NCBI RefSeq assembly: GCF_004353825.1
Contig: NZ_SMNA01000004.1
Coordinates: 1-64,000 of the forward strand
Origin: Occultella glacieicola
Lineage (GTDB): Bacteria > Actinomycetota > Actinomycetes > Actinomycetales > Beutenbergiaceae
Direction of reading: 5' to 3'
DNA: 64,000 nt
The notes beneath the pieces were generated by a model. That model was not told where the DNA came from. It worked only from the letters and a program-made list of their open reading frames with translations, and did not search any database. How positions within the stretch are numbered: the stretch's first letter is position 1; every line of letters starts with the position of its first letter. The translations under genes were made by a program, and so were the position numbers. Below are positions 8,783 through 15,059 of the stretch, in pieces.

Positions 8783-10198
8783 ATGAGCACCTTCGCCGGA
8801 CTGAACACCGCCTTCCTCGGCGTCACGGCCCAACGTCGTGCCCTCGACGTGGTGGCCCAGAACGTCGCGAACCTGAACACCGTCGGGTACACCCGCCAGC
8901 GGGTGGAACTCTCCGGCGTCGGCTCGCCGGCCACTCTCGGGCTGTTCGCCGGTGCTCCGGAGCCCGGGCGTGGTGTCCGGGTGGACGGAGTCACCCGGCT
9001 CGGGGACGCCTACGTCGACGCCCGGGTCCGCGGCACCGCCTCCTCGCACGGCTTCGGGGCCGTCCGGGCCACGGCGCTCGCCGCGCTCGAGGAGTCCCTG
9101 CGCGAGCCGGGTGAGAACGGCCTGGCCGCGAAGCTCGACCAGTTCTGGGCGTCCTGGTCGGACCTGGCGAACCGGCCCGGTGACCCGTCCGCTGCGATCG
9201 TCGTGCGGGAGGCCGCCGCGAGCGTGGCCGTCGCCGTGAACCAGGGCTACGCCGAGGTGGACGCGCAGTGGAGCCGCGCCCGGGAGCAGGCCGACGCCCT
9301 CGTCGGCGAGCTCAACGGCGCGGCCGCTGCGGTGGCGGAACTGAACGAACGGATCCGGTCCACGGCGGCCGCCGGCGGATCGGTGAACGAGCTCATCGAC
9401 CAGCGCTCGAATCTCACCACCACCATCGCGGCGATCGCCGGCGGTGAGGTGCGCCAGCGTGAGGACGGCACGGTCGATGTCCTGGTCGGCGGCAACCCGC
9501 TGGTCTCCGGGGCCACGCACAACCCGGTCGTGGTCGCCGGAGCCGGCCGGCTGGCCGATGCCGCCACCGACCCGGTACGGGTGGCCTGGGCCCACCGGCC
9601 CGGCACCTCGGCGGGGCTGGGCGGTGGCGAGCTCGCAGGCACCGTCTCGCTGCTCGCCCCGGCCAACGGCAACGGTACCGGCGGCGTGCTCGCCGAGGCC
9701 GCGGCCTCCTACAACGCCTTCGCCACCGACCTCGCCGCGAAGGTGAACGCCGTGCACGCGCCCGGTCTGACCACCGACGGCGTCCCGGCCGGGAACTTCT
9801 TCGGCCTCAGCGCGGGCGCGCCGGCCGCGGCGGGGCTGCGGGTGGTCGCCACCGCGCTGGCCACCGGGGCCCCGGGTGCCGGTGGCCAGGACGGTTCGGT
9901 GGCGGACACGCTCGCTCAGATCGGCTCCGGCTCGCAGGCTCCGGACGCGCTCTGGGCCACGTTCGTCACCGAGACGGGTGTCCGTGCGCGGGGTGAGGCC
10001 GAGAGCGCCGCCCTCGCGGCTCTAGCCGCCGGTTCGGCCCTTGACCTGCAACTGGGCACCGCCGGCGTCGACCTCGACGAGGAGACCATGAACATGATGA
10101 CCTTCCAACGTGCCTACGAGGGCTCGGCCCGCGTGATGACGGCGATCGACGAGATGCTCGACACCCTCATCAACCGGACCGGGATCGTCGGGAGGTGA
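8783..10198 (+). CDS. flgK: Hook-associated protein FlgK
   Basis: NVANLNTVGYTRQ; GVDLDEE...FQRAY. Confidence 0.97.
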   Translation: MSTFAGLNTAFLGVTAQRRALDVVAQNVANLNTVGYTRQRVELSGVGSPATLGLFAGAPEPGRGVRVDGVTRLGDAYVDARVRGTASSHGFGAVRATALAALEESLREPGENGLAAKLDQFWASWSDLANRPGDPSAAIVVREAAASVAVAVNQGYAEVDAQWSRAREQADALVGELNGAAAAVAELNERIRSTAAAGGSVNELIDQRSNLTTTIAAIAGGEVRQREDGTVDVLVGGNPLVSGATHNPVVVAGAGRLADAATDPVRVAWAHRPGTSAGLGGGELAGTVSLLAPANGNGTGGVLAEAAASYNAFATDLAAKVNAVHAPGLTTDGVPAGNFFGLSAGAPAAAGLRVVATALATGAPGAGGQDGSVADTLAQIGSGSQAPDALWATFVTETGVRARGEAESAALAALAAGSALDLQLGTAGVDLDEETMNMMTFQRAYEGSARVMTAIDEMLDTLINRTGIVGR

Positions 10199-11085
10199 GC
10201 GCCATGATCACCCGAGTCACGCATCAGCTGACCGCCCGCACGGCGGCACAGAACCTGCAGGCCTCGCTGGCCCAACTGAACCGGCTCACCGAGCAGGCGA
10301 CCAGCGGCACCCGGATCTCACGCCCGTCCGACGACCCGAGCGGAACGGCCGAGTCCCTGCGTCTTCGCGGCGAGCACCGGGTCGCCCAGCAGCATGCCCG
10401 CAACGCCCAGGACGGCCTCGGCTGGGTGACCGTGGTCGACAACGCCATCCAGACCGGGATCGACCTGATCGGCCGGGCCAAGGACCTCACCCTCACCGGT
10501 GCCAACGGGGCGAGTTCCCCAGCGGCCCGCGAGGCGCTCGCCACCGAGATCGACTCGCTCCGGGAGGCCATGATGGACCAGGCGAACCGCACCCACGGCG
10601 GCCGGTCGGTGTTCGCCGGCACCTCGGACGCGCCGACCGCGTTCGACACCGACGGCACCCACAACGGCGTCCCCGGCGCCACGGTGCAGCGCCGGATCGG
10701 CCCGGACTCGACCGTCCGCGTCGATGGCGACGGCGTGGCGGTGTTCGGGTCCGGGACCGGCTCGGTGTTCTCGCTCCTCACGGACATCGCGGCCGACCTG
10801 CGCTCCGGGGTGGACGTGACCCCGCGGCTCGCCGAGCTCGACGGGCGTCAGCAGCAGATGCTCGGCGAGCTCACCGCCGTGGGCACCAGGTACAACCGGC
10901 TGGAGGTGGCCGAAGCGGCCAACGAGCAGCGCATGGGAGGGTTGGAGAACCGACTCTCCGCCGTCGAAGGGGTGGACATGGCCAGGACGATCATCGACCT
11001 CAAGTCGGCCGAGGTCGCCTACCAGGGTGCGCTCGGCGTCAGTGCTCGGGTGCTCCAGAACAGCCTGCTGGACTTCCTCCGATGA
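10195..11085 (+). CDS. flgL: Hook-associated protein FlgL
   Basis: SGTRISRPSDDP; SLLDFLR. The start could be ATG 10204. Confidence 0.95.
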   Translation: MSAMITRVTHQLTARTAAQNLQASLAQLNRLTEQATSGTRISRPSDDPSGTAESLRLRGEHRVAQQHARNAQDGLGWVTVVDNAIQTGIDLIGRAKDLTLTGANGASSPAAREALATEIDSLREAMMDQANRTHGGRSVFAGTSDAPTAFDTDGTHNGVPGATVQRRIGPDSTVRVDGDGVAVFGSGTGSVFSLLTDIAADLRSGVDVTPRLAELDGRQQQMLGELTAVGTRYNRLEVAEAANEQRMGGLENRLSAVEGVDMARTIIDLKSAEVAYQGALGVSARVLQNSLLDFLR

Positions 11086-11468
11086 GCGCCGTCACGTTCC
11101 TCTCGCCGCCCCCCGGACTAGCCCCGCACGTCGAGTTCGAGCTGACCCCGGTGCCGGCAGCGACCGGCCTGCTCACCCTGACCGCGCCCGGCGCGGACGG
11201 GCTCCGGCTGTTCCTCGTCGACGCGCAGGCGCACCTGTCCGGGTACACCCCGGTGCTCTCCGCCGAGCAGGGCACCCGGCTCGGCCTCTCGGACGCGGCC
11301 GAGGCGGAGGTCTTCGTGGTCGCCAACCCCGCCGGCGAGGTCACGACCGTCAACCTGATGGCGCCGGTCGTGGTGCACCGAGGCAGCGGGGCCGCGCTCC
11401 AGGTGATCCTGGAGAACCAGGACTGGCCGCTGCAGCACCCCCTCGGCGAGCCGGTGAGCCCACGATGA
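11082..11468 (+). CDS. fliW: Flagellar assembly factor FliW
   Basis: TTVNLMAPVVV...QVIL...WPLQHPL; follows flgL. Confidence 0.88.
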   Translation: MSAVTFLSPPPGLAPHVEFELTPVPAATGLLTLTAPGADGLRLFLVDAQAHLSGYTPVLSAEQGTRLGLSDAAEAEVFVVANPAGEVTTVNLMAPVVVHRGSGAALQVILENQDWPLQHPLGEPVSPR

Positions 11469-11894: not shown

Positions 11895-12878
11895 TCAGTC
11901 GAGCAGGCGGGCCTGGGGTACGAGGTCGGACAGGTCCTGCAGTTCCACGTCGCTCGCCGGCCCGTTCACGAACGTCCGCACCGGCATCCTCGTCGAGGCG
12001 TAGGCGTCCTCGAACGCCTCCCGCAGCGCCCGCGGCGAGCGCGAGAGGCCCCACTCGACGGTCTCGTCGGTCGAGCGGAGGAAGTCGGCGAAGAGCGGGT
12101 CGGACGTCCACAGCTCGCGCATGGTTCCGGACGTGTCCAGCGCCAGGCGCACCACCGAGGAGATGGCCCGGCGCTGCCGCACCGTGTTGTTCGATGTCAG
12201 CGGGCCGAGGACGAACTGCGCGCGCCGGTGGGTCGTCGTGAGGTCGAAGGCCGGTCTCGCCCGGCCGGTCAGGTTCGGCGGTTCGAGGATCCGCTCGCCG
12301 GGGCGCAGCATACGTTGCAGACCGAGCGCGACGGCCGTCGCCGTGCTCACCGCGCTCAGCCGGTCCGCACGCCGGCGGGTGAGGCTGGCGTACTCGATCA
12401 GCTCGGCGGCCACATTCTGGTCGGACGCCGGCGTGTCCAGTGCCGAGCCGTCGACCTCACCGCTCGACGCCGTCAGGGTTGCGGTCGTCCGTCCGGACAG
12501 CGCGCTCTCCCAGTCGTCCACGAACCGGCTCAGGGACGGGGTCAACAACGCCGTCGCGAGATGGTGCCAGGCAGCTTCGGCGTCCCCGGTGACGTCCTCC
12601 GGTCGACGGGTGATCGGGACCCCGCGGCGCCGGGTCCGCCCGGTTGCCGAGGAGGAGACCTGGAACCCGAGCTGCTGAAAGATCCGCCGCGCGGTCTCGG
12701 TCGTGAAGTCGGCGCGGTACAGGCCGGTGCACAGCTCCAACGCCTGCTTGACCGGCCAGTGCAGGCCGGCCACCGCGACCCAGTGCAGCTGGATCCGCGC
12801 GGGCCGGCGCCCCGCGAGCGACTCGCGGACGCTCTCGGGCGTGAGGTGGTGTGAACGACCCTTGATCGTGAAGCGCAT
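11895..12878 (-). CDS. Hypothetical protein: SCO5918-like N-terminal DNA-binding domain plus a possibly degenerate PD-(D/E)XK-like C-terminal domain
   Basis: N-terminal HWVAVAGLHWPVKQ...DFTTETARRIFQQLGF; C-terminal AFDLTTTHRRAQF...TVRQ. Family recognition is from memory. Confidence 0.55.
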   Translation of the reverse strand: MRFTIKGRSHHLTPESVRESLAGRRPARIQLHWVAVAGLHWPVKQALELCTGLYRADFTTETARRIFQQLGFQVSSSATGRTRRRGVPITRRPEDVTGDAEAAWHHLATALLTPSLSRFVDDWESALSGRTTATLTASSGEVDGSALDTPASDQNVAAELIEYASLTRRRADRLSAVSTATAVALGLQRMLRPGERILEPPNLTGRARPAFDLTTTHRRAQFVLGPLTSNNTVRQRRAISSVVRLALDTSGTMRELWTSDPLFADFLRSTDETVEWGLSRSPRALREAFEDAYASTRMPVRTFVNGPASDVELQDLSDLVPQARLLD

Positions 12879-12882
12879 GGCG

Positions 12883-13803
12883 TCAGCCCAGCTGGGGCGC
12901 GACCTCCCGGGCGATCAGGTCGAGGTGGTCGAGATCCTGCAGATCCATCACCTGCAGGTAGACCCGCTCCACGCCCGACTCGCGCAGCCGGGCCAGACGG
13001 TCCACGGCCTCGGCCACGGTGCCGGCGATGCCGTGCTCGCGCAGTTCGGCGCCCTCGCGCCCGATCGCGGCCGCACGCTGCCCGAACTCGGCCTCGTCGG
13101 CACCCACGCAGAGCACGTGGGCGGCGGAGTACGTGAGGCTGTCGGGATCCCGGCCGGCCTCGGTGCAGGCCCGGCGCACCCGCTCGAGCTTGGACGCGAT
13201 CTCGTCGAACTCGGCGAAGCCGAGATTGAACTCGGTGGCGAACCGGGCCGCGAGCGCCGGGGTGCGCCGGGGCCCGTGGCCACCCACGATCACCGGGATC
13301 GAGGCCTGCACCGGTTTCGGCAGCGCCGGGCAGTCGGTCAGTCGATAGTGCTCGCCGGCGAAGGAGAACGTCTCGCCCAGCGGGGTCCCCCACAGTCCCG
13401 TGATCACCTGGAGCTGCTCGGTGAGGATCCCGAAGCGCTTGGTCGGGAACGGGATCCCGTAGGCCGTGTGCTCGGCCTCGAACCACCCGGAGCCGAGCCC
13501 GAGCTCGACCCGTCCGCCGGACATCTGATCCACCTGGGCCACCTGGATCGCAAGCACGCTGGGGTGGCGGAAGGTGGCGGAGGAGACCAGCGTGCCCAGC
13601 CGGATCCGGGAGGTCTCCCGGGCCAGGCCGGCGAGCGTGGTCCACGCGTCCGTGGGCCCCGGCAAGCCGTCGCCGCCCATGGTCAGGTAGTGGTCGGACC
13701 GGAAGAACGCGTCGAAGCCGAGATCCTCGGTGGCCCGGGCGACGGCGAGCAGGTCGTCGTAGGTGGCGCCCTGCTGGGGCTCGGTGAAGATGCGCAGTTG
13801 CAT
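12883..13803 (-). CDS. LLM-class F420-dependent oxidoreductase
   Basis: LRIFTEPQQGATY, FFRSDH, GPTDAW, SGGRVELGLG. Confidence 0.95.
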   Translation of the reverse strand: MQLRIFTEPQQGATYDDLLAVARATEDLGFDAFFRSDHYLTMGGDGLPGPTDAWTTLAGLARETSRIRLGTLVSSATFRHPSVLAIQVAQVDQMSGGRVELGLGSGWFEAEHTAYGIPFPTKRFGILTEQLQVITGLWGTPLGETFSFAGEHYRLTDCPALPKPVQASIPVIVGGHGPRRTPALAARFATEFNLGFAEFDEIASKLERVRRACTEAGRDPDSLTYSAAHVLCVGADEAEFGQRAAAIGREGAELREHGIAGTVAEAVDRLARLRESGVERVYLQVMDLQDLDHLDLIAREVAPQLG

Positions 13804-13845
13804 GGGTCCACCCTGCCACGGCCGGTCGTCGATGGCCGCGCCGAG

Positions 13846-13900
13846 CCCGGCCCGGCCCTGCCCTGCCCGGCCCTGCCCTACCCTGCCCTGCCCTGCCCTG
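13846..13900. repeat. Pentanucleotide tandem repeat (CCCTG/CCCGG), 11 units
   Basis: cccgg cccgg ccctg ccctg cccgg ccctg cccta ccctg ccctg ccctg ccctg. Confidence 0.9.
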
Positions 13901-13938
13901 CGCGGCCCCTGCGTGACACTGCCCCGCCCCAGGCGGCT

Positions 13939-14006
13939 GACCTAGTACCTGAGGTGGTGAGATCGCCCCTCGATGGGTCCGAACTCGACCTCTCGGGTCC
14001 TAGGTC
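13939..14006. repeat. Imperfect palindromic REP-like element
   Basis: GACCTAGTACCTGAG...CTCGGGTCCTAGGTC inverted ends. Confidence 0.5.
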
Positions 14007-14029
14007 GGCGAGGGTGGCGCGCCCACCGG

Positions 14030-14243
14030 GCACGAAGAAGCCCCGCGGTTCCCGACGTGGTGTCGGGGTGCCGCACTGGACGAAGGTGCGGCCCCGCGGG
14101 GCTCCGGTGGCTGCCGTGGTCTCGCTAGCGCTCGCGCGCCGTGGAGACGGCATGCCGTCCGATCACTTTGACGAGCGGCTAGCGGACAGCCACCTCACGA
14201 GTCCCAAGATTCTTCACGTCTCGGACCACCTCCTTTCGCGTGT
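14030..14243 (-). ncRNA. Candidate structured small RNA or small-peptide mRNA (about 215 nt)
   Basis: Own promoter, multiple helices, 3' multibranch GC stem followed by a U-rich tail; see findings. Confidence 0.6.
14179..14217 (-). CDS. Putative 12-aa small peptide MKNLGTREVAVR
   Basis: AAGGAGGT SD 10 nt upstream of GTG; TAG stop. Confidence 0.45.
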   Translation of the reverse strand: MKNLGTREVAVR

Positions 14244-14249
14244 GCCGCC

Positions 14250-14278
14250 AATCTACGTCCGTCGTCGCCGCACGCCAA
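14250..14278 (-). promoter_or_regulatory. SigA-like promoter TTGGCG-N17-TAGATT
   Basis: Near-consensus -35/-10 with a 17-bp spacer directly upstream of the candidate sRNA. Confidence 0.6.
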
Positions 14279-14324: not shown

Positions 14325-15059
14325 ATGCCGCAGATCCGGATGGTCGCGTTCGACGCCGACGACACGCTCTGGCGCAGCGAGGACTACTTCGAGGCGGCCC
14401 AGGCGGAGTTCGAGCGCATCGTCGCCCCGTACGTCACCCGCCCCGGTGCGCTCGACCGCCTCGCCGCCGTCGAGAGGGCGAACCTGAGCGTCTTCGGCTA
14501 CGGCGTCAAGGGCATGGCCCTGTCGATGATCGAGGCGGCCATCGAGGTCACCGGTCAGCGCATCAGCGCCGCCGACCTGCACCGCATCGTGGTGCTGAGC
14601 AAGGACATGCTGCGTCATCCGGTCGAGCTCCTGCCCGGGATCCGGGCCGCCGTCGAGGAGATCGCCGCGGAGCACCCGATCGTCATGATCACGAAGGGCG
14701 ACCTGTTCCACCAGGAGGCCAAGGTGCGCGACTCCGGCCTCGGTGACCTGTTCCGCCGCATCGAGATCGTGAGCGAGAAGGACGCCGCCACCTACGCGCG
14801 ACTGCTGGCCGAGTTCGAGGCGGACCCGACCGAGTTCGTGATGATCGGGAACTCGCTGCGCTCGGACATCGCGCCGGTCCTCGCGCTCGGCGGCTGGGGC
14901 GTCCACGTCCCGTACCACCTCACCTGGGCGCTGGAGCTCGAGGCGGAGATCCCGCCCGAGCACGTCCGCCGGCTGCACACGGTCGCCTCCGCCGCGGAAC
15001 TGCCGACGGCGGTGCGCGCCATCGTCGACGGGGTCCCGCCGGAGTCCCTGGGCGCCTGA
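14325..15059 (+). CDS. HAD-family hydrolase
   Basis: FDADDTLW motif I; TKGDLFHQ; GNSLRSDI. Confidence 0.93.
   Translation: MPQIRMVAFDADDTLWRSEDYFEAAQAEFERIVAPYVTRPGALDRLAAVERANLSVFGYGVKGMALSMIEAAIEVTGQRISAADLHRIVVLSKDMLRHPVELLPGIRAAVEEIAAEHPIVMITKGDLFHQEAKVRDSGLGDLFRRIEIVSEKDAATYARLLAEFEADPTEFVMIGNSLRSDIAPVLALGGWGVHVPYHLTWALELEAEIPPEHVRRLHTVASAAELPTAVRAIVDGVPPESLGA

Follow-up and report, generated by a model that had tools for sequence, protein, structure and literature searches.

The minus strand of the Occultella glacieicola window (the whole stretch of DNA analysed, 64,000 nucleotides of contig NZ_SMNA01000004.1) carries a stand-alone small RNA gene that is a new copy of the already catalogued Ms_IGR-5 family. 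On balance, the best explanation for this RNA is that it holds the 30S subunit through a 16-base match to the 16S rRNA, is weakly translated and is unfolded by the ribosome, with the encoded peptide probably a by-product. Comparison of homologues shows that the promoter position, the extended Shine-Dalgarno (SD) sequence, the start codon, the reading frame, the stop codon and the helices are all conserved. The features of the locus are as follows.

14325-15059, plus strand: HAD hydrolase gene, divergent neighbour
14273..14278, minus strand: -35 hexamer TTGGCG of a predicted primary-sigma promoter, matching the consensus at 4/6 positions
14250..14255, minus strand: -10 hexamer TAGATT, at a position conserved in homologues
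14031..14243, minus strand: RNA gene, member of Rfam RF02471 Ms_IGR-5 (cmscan), predicted +1 at A14243
14222..14237, minus strand: extended SD (SD1), 16 nt against the 16S rRNA 3' tail, one G-U pair
14179..14217, minus strand: 12-codon ORF, GTG to TAG, MKNLGTREVAVR; frame conserved, peptide not
14201..14204, minus strand: GGAC, ORF +14 to +17, predicted 5' strand of a pseudoknot, covarying with a 3' loop
14191..14196, minus strand: SD2, an internal GAGGTG read in frame as GAG GTG and located five codons ahead of the stop
14185..14194, minus strand: 5' strand of long-range helix P2, pairing with 14106-14115 and covering SD2 and codons 8-11
14123..14184, minus strand: stem-loop P3; its basal stem includes the last codon and stop codon, its distal part is variable
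14106..14115, minus strand: 3' strand of P2, ending in CACC
14037..14105, minus strand: 3' three-way junction (z -4.90, covariation)
14105-14094 with 14048-14037, minus strand: closing stem of the junction, enclosing hairpins 14092-14070 and 14067-14051
14078..14081, minus strand: GUCC in the loop of hairpin 14092-14070, predicted 3' strand of the pseudoknot, unpaired in the nested fold
12883-13803, minus strand: luciferase-like monooxygenase gene, 228 nt downstream of the RNA

Identity and genomic setting of the RNA gene

The RF02471 match on the minus strand scored 92.6 bits (E 4.7e-21, against a gathering cut-off of 45 bits) and spans model positions 1-184, that is, the full model without truncation. 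The original prediction could assign no named Rfam family and had named an Rfam match beforehand as refuting the novelty of the RNA; the match came out positive, and a novel RNA family is thereby ruled out. The promoter, SD sequence, ORF and stems that it placed on the minus strand are all in the sequence at those positions, and its broader proposal of a self-standing, structured small RNA that carries a genuine short ORF held up (folding z score -4.8, frame conserved). A tRNA or tmRNA was considered and rejected, as none lies within the 64-kb window. The Rfam family is named for M. smegmatis IGR-5 (ncMSMEG15794c); the O. glacieicola RNA shares with it an intergenic position and a predicted promoter of its own, and is single copy in its genome; one genome (G021, loci L022 and L261) was the only one with two copies among those searched with the Rfam model. 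We take scr4389 to be a candidate Streptomyces homologue, which is a guess.

Expression of the family has been documented in several organisms. Within the available text of the sources, the S. lividans homologue was validated by RNA-seq (PMC8079986), the M. smegmatis RNA was detected under cold stress (PMC10454040), and M. smegmatis IGR-5 was found to be NAD-capped with A at +1 and was labelled functionally uncharacterised (bioRxiv 2021.12.14.472595). The accessible portions of four papers on homologues make no mention of an ORF or of 16S complementarity, and those of the supplements of PMC8079986 and PMC10454040 hold no record of the mini-ORF. Twelve of the 13 files in the supplement of PMC4633059 contain neither a ribosome-profiling record for IGR-5 nor a record of the ORF. 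The published literature on Ms_IGR-5 that we covered, a body to which the original family report (Li et al. 2013) does not belong, describes no ORF, two SD elements, pseudoknot or ribosome binding.

The predicted promoter TTGGCG-N17-TAGATT is present in sequence, with a 17-nt spacer between 14278-14273 and 14255-14250, but its consensus score fell below threshold: a consensus scan called no promoter here, the candidate having 8/12 matches where 9 were needed, and the same scan found no U-tail terminator at the RNA locus. The -10 hexamer is supported because TANNNT is kept at its position in homologues (133/171, as compared with 0, 0 and 3 in shifted windows). The M. smegmatis start at 5862639 falls 54 nt beyond the MSMEG_5795 stop given in the supplement of PMC4633059, and in three homologous loci (L002-L004) the distance from the end of an aminotransferase class IV gene to the first A of the model is 52-56 nt. 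This start and the matching spacing point to the first A of the model, here A14243, as the likely +1 of the O. glacieicola RNA.

The next same-strand gene was expected to lie more than 200 nt away, and it is indeed separated from the RNA by 228 nt. It is very improbable that the RNA is a cis-acting leader or attenuator of this luciferase-like monooxygenase gene. Leader-peptide attenuators, including the mycobacterial Cys-rich leaders, have a short ORF woven into alternative helices; Ms_IGR-5 shares the short ORF within helices, but has no conserved downstream gene, regulatory codon run or terminator/antiterminator pair. In 5 related loci, as here, a gene of the same monooxygenase family follows the RNA in the same orientation; the family is, however, upstream and divergent in two others (L037, L045) and convergent in a third (L051). 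We scanned 87 of 114 candidate flanking ORFs across homologous loci, and among the 45 downstream ORFs scanned a Pfam match was obtained for 32, of which 21 are convergent and 11 on the same strand, with many unrelated families. The S. avermitilis homologue is moreover a separate sRNA transcription unit in the available text of PMC8780764. Because the flanking genes vary in this way between homologues, the attenuator suggested in the original prediction is not retained, and by comparison of loci the Ms_IGR-5 RNA is a stand-alone gene and no leader.

Several other elements were observed near the RNA. An imperfect 30-nt inverted repeat at 13936-14009 (z -2.5) immediately downstream could be a terminator or a REP-like element. 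A degenerate run of a 5-nt repeat (GGGCA/GGGCC on the minus strand) occupies 13845-13903 just upstream of the monooxygenase gene, together with an imperfect inverted repeat at 13834-13907. Adjoining the monooxygenase gene is a 327-aa ORF without a Pfam match (11895-12878, minus strand), which converges on a flagellar block (flagellin-like 10195-11085, FliW 11082-11468).

The extended Shine-Dalgarno sequence and the short reading frame

The SD core AAGGAGGT (14235-14228, minus strand) sits within a stretch, 14237-14222, that forms 16 contiguous pairs, one of them G-U, with the 16S tail of the congeneric genome G151. This tail was used in the calculations, the 16S 3' end not being found in the O. 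glacieicola assembly; the last 24 nt of the tail are identical in 8/8 rRNA loci compared. The duplex energy of SD1 with the free tail (-29.3 kcal/mol) is the lowest of all 18,459 GGAGG sites in the genome, and by contiguous pair length SD1 ranks fifth among them. Homologues have 16-22 contiguous pairs with the 16S tail in 56/58 cases, and the other 2 are without GGAGG and were unscored. The second-best 16S-tail complement of the genome (19 contiguous pairs, -29.0 kcal/mol) is at G000:C23, plus strand near 80659; it has no Ms_IGR-5 match and may sit within coding DNA.

An extended pairing of this kind might also serve the rRNA itself, with the RNA acting as a guard or chaperone of the 16S 3' end on free or immature 30S subunits, tail pairing shielding it from nucleases or assisting final maturation, and translation of the mini-ORF serving as release or quality check. 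The pairing does span the whole free tail and in many homologues enters the 3' strand of helix 45 (17-22 pairs, 42/58), and in the Acidobacteriota and Desulfobacterota forms the start codon is one base past the 16S-paired stretch, an arrangement under which full pairing and initiation would be incompatible. Among the neighbours scanned, neither rRNA operons nor maturation genes are linked to the RNA in a conserved way, and we regard this role as quite improbable.

The 12-codon GTG...TAG frame of the original prediction is present and conserved; its translation is VKNLGTREVAVR*. Model searches yielded 77 distinct matches, of which 75 (58 + 17) were examined. An in-frame stop lies five codons past GAG GTG in 75/75; the 58-locus set has TAG 46, TGA 8 and TAA 4, and a stop is present in 17/17 of the further matches, one of which reads GAG GGG by eye. 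The 58-locus counts include one locus (L029, genome G048) from a genome flagged unpublished, on which no conclusion rests. Within this set an NTG 6-13 nt past GGAGG is in frame in 57/58, with 1 and 0 in the other frames, and no in-frame stop interrupts the ORF in any of the 58 homologues.

An independent GTDB pattern scan, in which start and stop were left unspecified, gave at least 120 loci. The stop is at the expected position in 116/120 of the pattern matches listed (TAG 99, TAA 9, TGA 8, with TGG 0), and three of the four stop-less matches, when inspected, resemble chance matches in coding DNA. An in-frame start accompanies 111/116 of the matches listed (14 and 4 in the other frames), ORF length among them is 12 to 15 codons, and in two rows a stop interrupts the frame between SD1 and GAG. 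Phage copies were rejected as a candidate: 11 pattern matches on viral contigs include 0/11 with the stop and were read as chance. With the stop masked during its construction, a tree of 171 actinobacterial rows gave at least 22 stop-codon, 32 start-codon and 11 length changes; the model and pattern sets may share some genomes. The start is non-ATG in 116/165 homologues with a start called. Seven loci (L101, L113, L119, L128, L134, L026, L269) have no in-frame NTG and carry ATT, ATC, ACG or ATA at the start position, which suggests non-canonical initiation behind a strong SD in these homologues.

Ordinary O. glacieicola genes have GAG GTG five codons before the stop in 9/3,780 cases. SD2 (GAGGTG) is present in 74/75 model matches, an invariance that is partly circular, since the search patterns contain the motif and the Rfam model favours it; its predicted duplex with the 16S tail has an energy of -11.5 kcal/mol. 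Judged from comparison, the mini-ORF is real as a frame whose position is under conservation, while the peptide is not.

This distinction bears on a reading in which the RNA serves as the mRNA of a functional 12-residue peptide, its output being held low through the extended SD along with its GTG start codon. The available text of Hahn et al. (PMC5711450) favours such a peptide-mRNA reading for rreB. Here, selection acts strongly on start, frame and stop, homologues repeatedly show T-x-E-V at constant positions, and the three codons that precede GAG and contain the pseudoknot strand have a pN/pS of 0.58. However, the invariant residues coincide with invariant nucleotides: GAG GTG is found in 58/58 without a synonymous change, and E-V is invariant because these six bases are fixed as nucleotides. 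Measured on 123 nearest-neighbour pairs, the free codons have a pN/pS of 0.88, which is neutral, and the paired codons ahead of the stop one of 1.33, so that purifying selection on the peptide sequence, as expected of a functional micropeptide gene, was not found. The free 5' codons encode 9-15 different residues per position, the reading phase of GGAC is shifted in 4/58 homologues, the codon holding its GG reads R, G, W, S, E or A, and the length varies as described. A functional peptide is accordingly improbable, the micropeptide function raised in the original prediction is set aside, and we hold with good confidence that the RNA functions independently of the peptide.

Helices and the predicted pseudoknot

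The RNA from 14030 to 14245 folds at -115 kcal/mol (z -4.8), and 0/200 shuffled sequences fold as well. The stability resides in the middle domain (z -4.25) and in the 3' three-way junction, which was found as originally drawn (z -4.90); the 5' 48 nt fold no better than shuffles (z +0.88). Covariation was assessed in an unrefined alignment of 54 of the 58 homologues. Within it, 77.6% of cells of the nested structure are paired and the covariation score is 0.316, as against 0.156 when shuffled and at most 0.128 when slid.

Helix P2 had been proposed as an 8-bp long-range helix; the helix exists but has 10 bp (14194-14185 with 14106-14115). Its first eight pairs are held in 52-54 of 54 homologues, with a 1-nt bulge allowed in 19, and two-sided changes occur at pairs five to eight, GGUG/CACC being almost invariant. 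The P3 helix is 80.6% paired, with two-sided change in 4/6 pairs. A short unpaired linker before the 3' strand of P2 (14116-14122) reads AAUCC(CAA) in many lineages, including Ignavibacteria-type loci, and is a possible protein or ribosome contact.

GGAC within the ORF is predicted to pair with GUCC in a 3' hairpin loop. Counts for this pseudoknot, as for P2, use alignment-column anchoring (with one bulge allowed in P2), and the two central pairs are fixed by the anchors and therefore uninformative. Among the 54 homologues, one outer pair is G-C in 48, C-G in 5 and A-U in 1, and the other is C-G in 52, U-A in 1 and U-G in 1; a fifth pair is available in 35/54 (C-G 20, G-C 14). The pseudoknot, of 4-5 bp, starts at +14 in 31/54 and at +16 to +19 in 23/54. 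In the scan set, where 83/113 rows passed a position-only filter, the corresponding pairs form in 81/83, 82/83 (six U-A) and 59/83; unfiltered counts are 95, 88 and 73 of 107, and two rows outside the filter have by eye an extra change, UGAC/GUCA. The independent covariation events are few, and the five C-G rows represent one family.

The same GGAC had been assigned to a 5' stem, GUCCGAGA/UCUUGGGAC, around the start codon. As a conserved structure this stem was rejected, since its inner four pairs form in only 24-31 of 54 homologues and the region has a z score of +0.88. Its outer GUCC/GGAC pairs break in 6/6 homologues that change the first G (C-C 5, A-C 1), and give C-A in 5/54 and 6/83 rows. 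GAUCC at the 5' end accompanies 5/6 of the GGAU variants in the scan set, and the stem may represent an alternative state. The alignment thus fits pairing of GGAC with the 3' hairpin loop, as predicted here, better than the earlier-described 5' stem.

Two further pairings involve SD1. The first helix of the Rfam model, between the SD GGUGGU and the codons past GAG GTG, can pair in 301/324 cells, many of them G-U, with no two-sided change. Re-pairing of the freed CACC strand with SD1 at termination was rejected: this pairing appears in the minimum-energy fold of the O. glacieicola RNA, has a probability of 0.14 here, and exceeds 0.5 in 9/54 homologues.

Distribution, relation to rreB and proposed function

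Ms_IGR-5 was found in 44/151 genomes of an Actinomycetota sample, 20 of them over the cut-off, and in 34/41 relatives, including 24/24 of the same family. Rfam lists it as an actinobacterial sRNA, whereas five loci outside Actinomycetota (L133, L146, L233, L237, L240) also score over the Rfam cut-off. Named homologous loci occur in Actinomycetes, Thermoleophilia, Acidimicrobiia, Nitriliruptoria, Acidobacteriota and Ignavibacteria. More distant homologues were sought by sequence pattern. In the phylum of the L146 genome a looser pattern was present in 68/301 genomes, partly by chance, with the stop in 19/30 loci read. In the phylum of the L071 genome the pattern was present in 52/201, with the stop in 20/20 loci read and a start called in 18; these 20 Ignavibacteria-type loci keep P2, P3 and a U-tailed terminator, and no pseudoknot partner was seen in them. 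Desulfobacterota had the pattern in 3/151 genomes, and the full pattern of two SDs plus stop was present in 0/151 Pseudomonadota. Two Acidobacteriota loci (L213 and L214, pattern match at about 1501) have a seemingly doubled EV motif (…SEVSYRTRE…), and their first GAG GTG is thus not five codons before the stop.

This distribution also bears on an account in which the ribosome is only an on/off switch, its unfolding of the RNA freeing a strand or domain for action on mRNAs in trans or for binding to a protein. Candidates for the freed part are the 3' junction, the anti-SD-like CAGCCACC strand and the conserved linker that precedes this strand. The nearly invariant CACC at the end of the P2 3' strand, the conserved and covarying 3' domain, the AAUCC-type linker kept in Ignavibacteria-type and Acidobacteriota loci, and the first report of IGR-5, by its title from a pull-down with heterologous Hfq, are all in keeping with it. 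The 3' domain is, however, reduced to a terminator hairpin in Ignavibacteria-type loci, and the features common to all lineages are the ribosome-facing ones, so a trans-acting role seems unlikely.

The closest working analogue, which Ms_IGR-5 most resembles without belonging to the CC2171 family, appears to be rreB. According to the available text of Hahn et al. (PMC5711450), rreB of Alphaproteobacteria is a 165-nt mRNA with a 17-nt SD and a 14-codon GTG ORF that co-sediments with 30S and is weakly translated into an unstructured peptide; removal of the start codon lengthens the half-life of the mRNA from 10 to 37 min. The same text reports that 20-fold overproduction left growth unaffected and argues against ribosome sequestration as the main role; it calls the function elusive and notes that the RreB and RreR peptides are conserved within clades. 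Ms_IGR-5 has in common with rreB and rreR a small stand-alone transcript, an extended SD directed at the entire 16S tail, a weak GTG start and a very short ORF. Two working features of the rre RNAs, complementarity to the 16S 3' end over 16 nt or more and a short ORF with a weak start directly behind the extended SD, are found in the O. glacieicola RNA (16 pairs with one G-U; 12 codons, GTG). The paired region of rreB reaches into the start codon, whereas here a 4-nt gap separates the 3' end of the pairing (14222) from GTG at 14217.

An rreB-type 5'-end pattern was present in 8/151 Pseudomonadota genomes, one locus of which (L257, without GAG GTG) opens with the rreB primer sequence from the PMC5711450 supplement. 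The Rfam family CC2171 (RF01867) shares its 5' end with the rreB and rreR mRNAs. On the CC2171 model, for which the available text of a preprint confirms expression and gives no function, the 8 loci score 36-84 bits, one over the cut-off of 75; the O. glacieicola window has no match to RF01867 even at E 10. All 8 have a predicted pairing between the 3' UTR and the end of the ORF (last codons plus stop). Three have GAG GTN four or five codons ahead of the stop: 2/3 of the 18-codon rreR-type loci have GAG GTG or GAG GTA four codons before it, and in one CC2171 locus the motif is GAG GTT and the distance five codons. The 18-codon ORFs (L258-L260) end in GG(G/A) ACA x x GAG (G/C)T x x x stop, with eight codons from GGNACA to the stop as in Ms_IGR-5, and in L259 and L260 GGAGGU pairs with a downstream ACCUCC. 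These ORF ends hint at a common origin with Ms_IGR-5; the shared SD could be convergent.

Taken with rreB, the conservation described above makes 30S binding and weak translation of Ms_IGR-5 very probable, and to this extent it supports the guess of a ribosome-binding RNA in the original prediction. By analogy to rreB, the extended SD would bind 30S tightly and delay exit from initiation. The initiating ribosome would then stand before the pseudoknot (from +14 here) and helix P2; by footprint geometry, +14 is near the mRNA entry channel. Elongation would melt the pseudoknot, P2 and the base of P3, and because all three use ORF bases, unfolding by the elongating ribosome is likely. Melting would expose GAGGTG as a second SD-like element, which could hold the ribosome at the stop. 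We rate as somewhat below even the chance that GAGGTG, which lies 8 nt ahead of the last sense codon, acts in this way as a second clamp at termination, and the invariance of GAGGTG could alternatively be due to P2 pairing or a protein partner. The RNA would report or buffer the supply of free ribosomes competent for elongation; its turnover is probably linked to its translation. A role in storing or sensing idle ribosomes is more tentative still, and bulk ribosome storage is less likely because rreB overproduction left growth unaffected.

6S RNA and Ms1 RNA are decoys of RNA polymerase, and 6S is released upon synthesis of a short product. The analogy to Ms_IGR-5 is a functional one, of a structured RNA that mimics the normal substrate of a machine: 6S and Ms1 target RNA polymerase, whereas the proposed target here is the ribosome, and there is no sequence or model match. 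In its widest form, the proposal would unite the Ms_IGR-5 RNAs, their Acidobacteriota, Ignavibacteria-type and Desulfobacterota relatives and the rre/CC2171 RNAs in a single ancient class of RNAs operated by the ribosome, a '6S RNA for the ribosome'. Such an RNA would clamp the ribosome at initiation with one SD and at termination with the second, would store idle ribosomes or sense them, and would be reset when translation of a dummy ORF opens the pseudoknot and two helices. We regard this generalization as speculative and rather unlikely.

The comparison recasts an RNA catalogued as non-coding as one that is probably translated and engages the ribosome. The Rfam consensus itself contains the extended SD and the 12-codon frame, and its structure is without helix P2 and the pseudoknot. 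Ms_IGR-5 is present in most sampled relatives and is expressed in M. smegmatis and Streptomyces, and the exact bases to mutate are now defined: the two SD elements, the start, the stop, the pseudoknot and P2. The comparison also ties Ms_IGR-5 to rreB of Alphaproteobacteria, an RNA whose role has awaited an explanation since 2016. If it is true that such RNAs store or sense ribosomes, they would constitute an RNA-based layer of translation control extending over several phyla.
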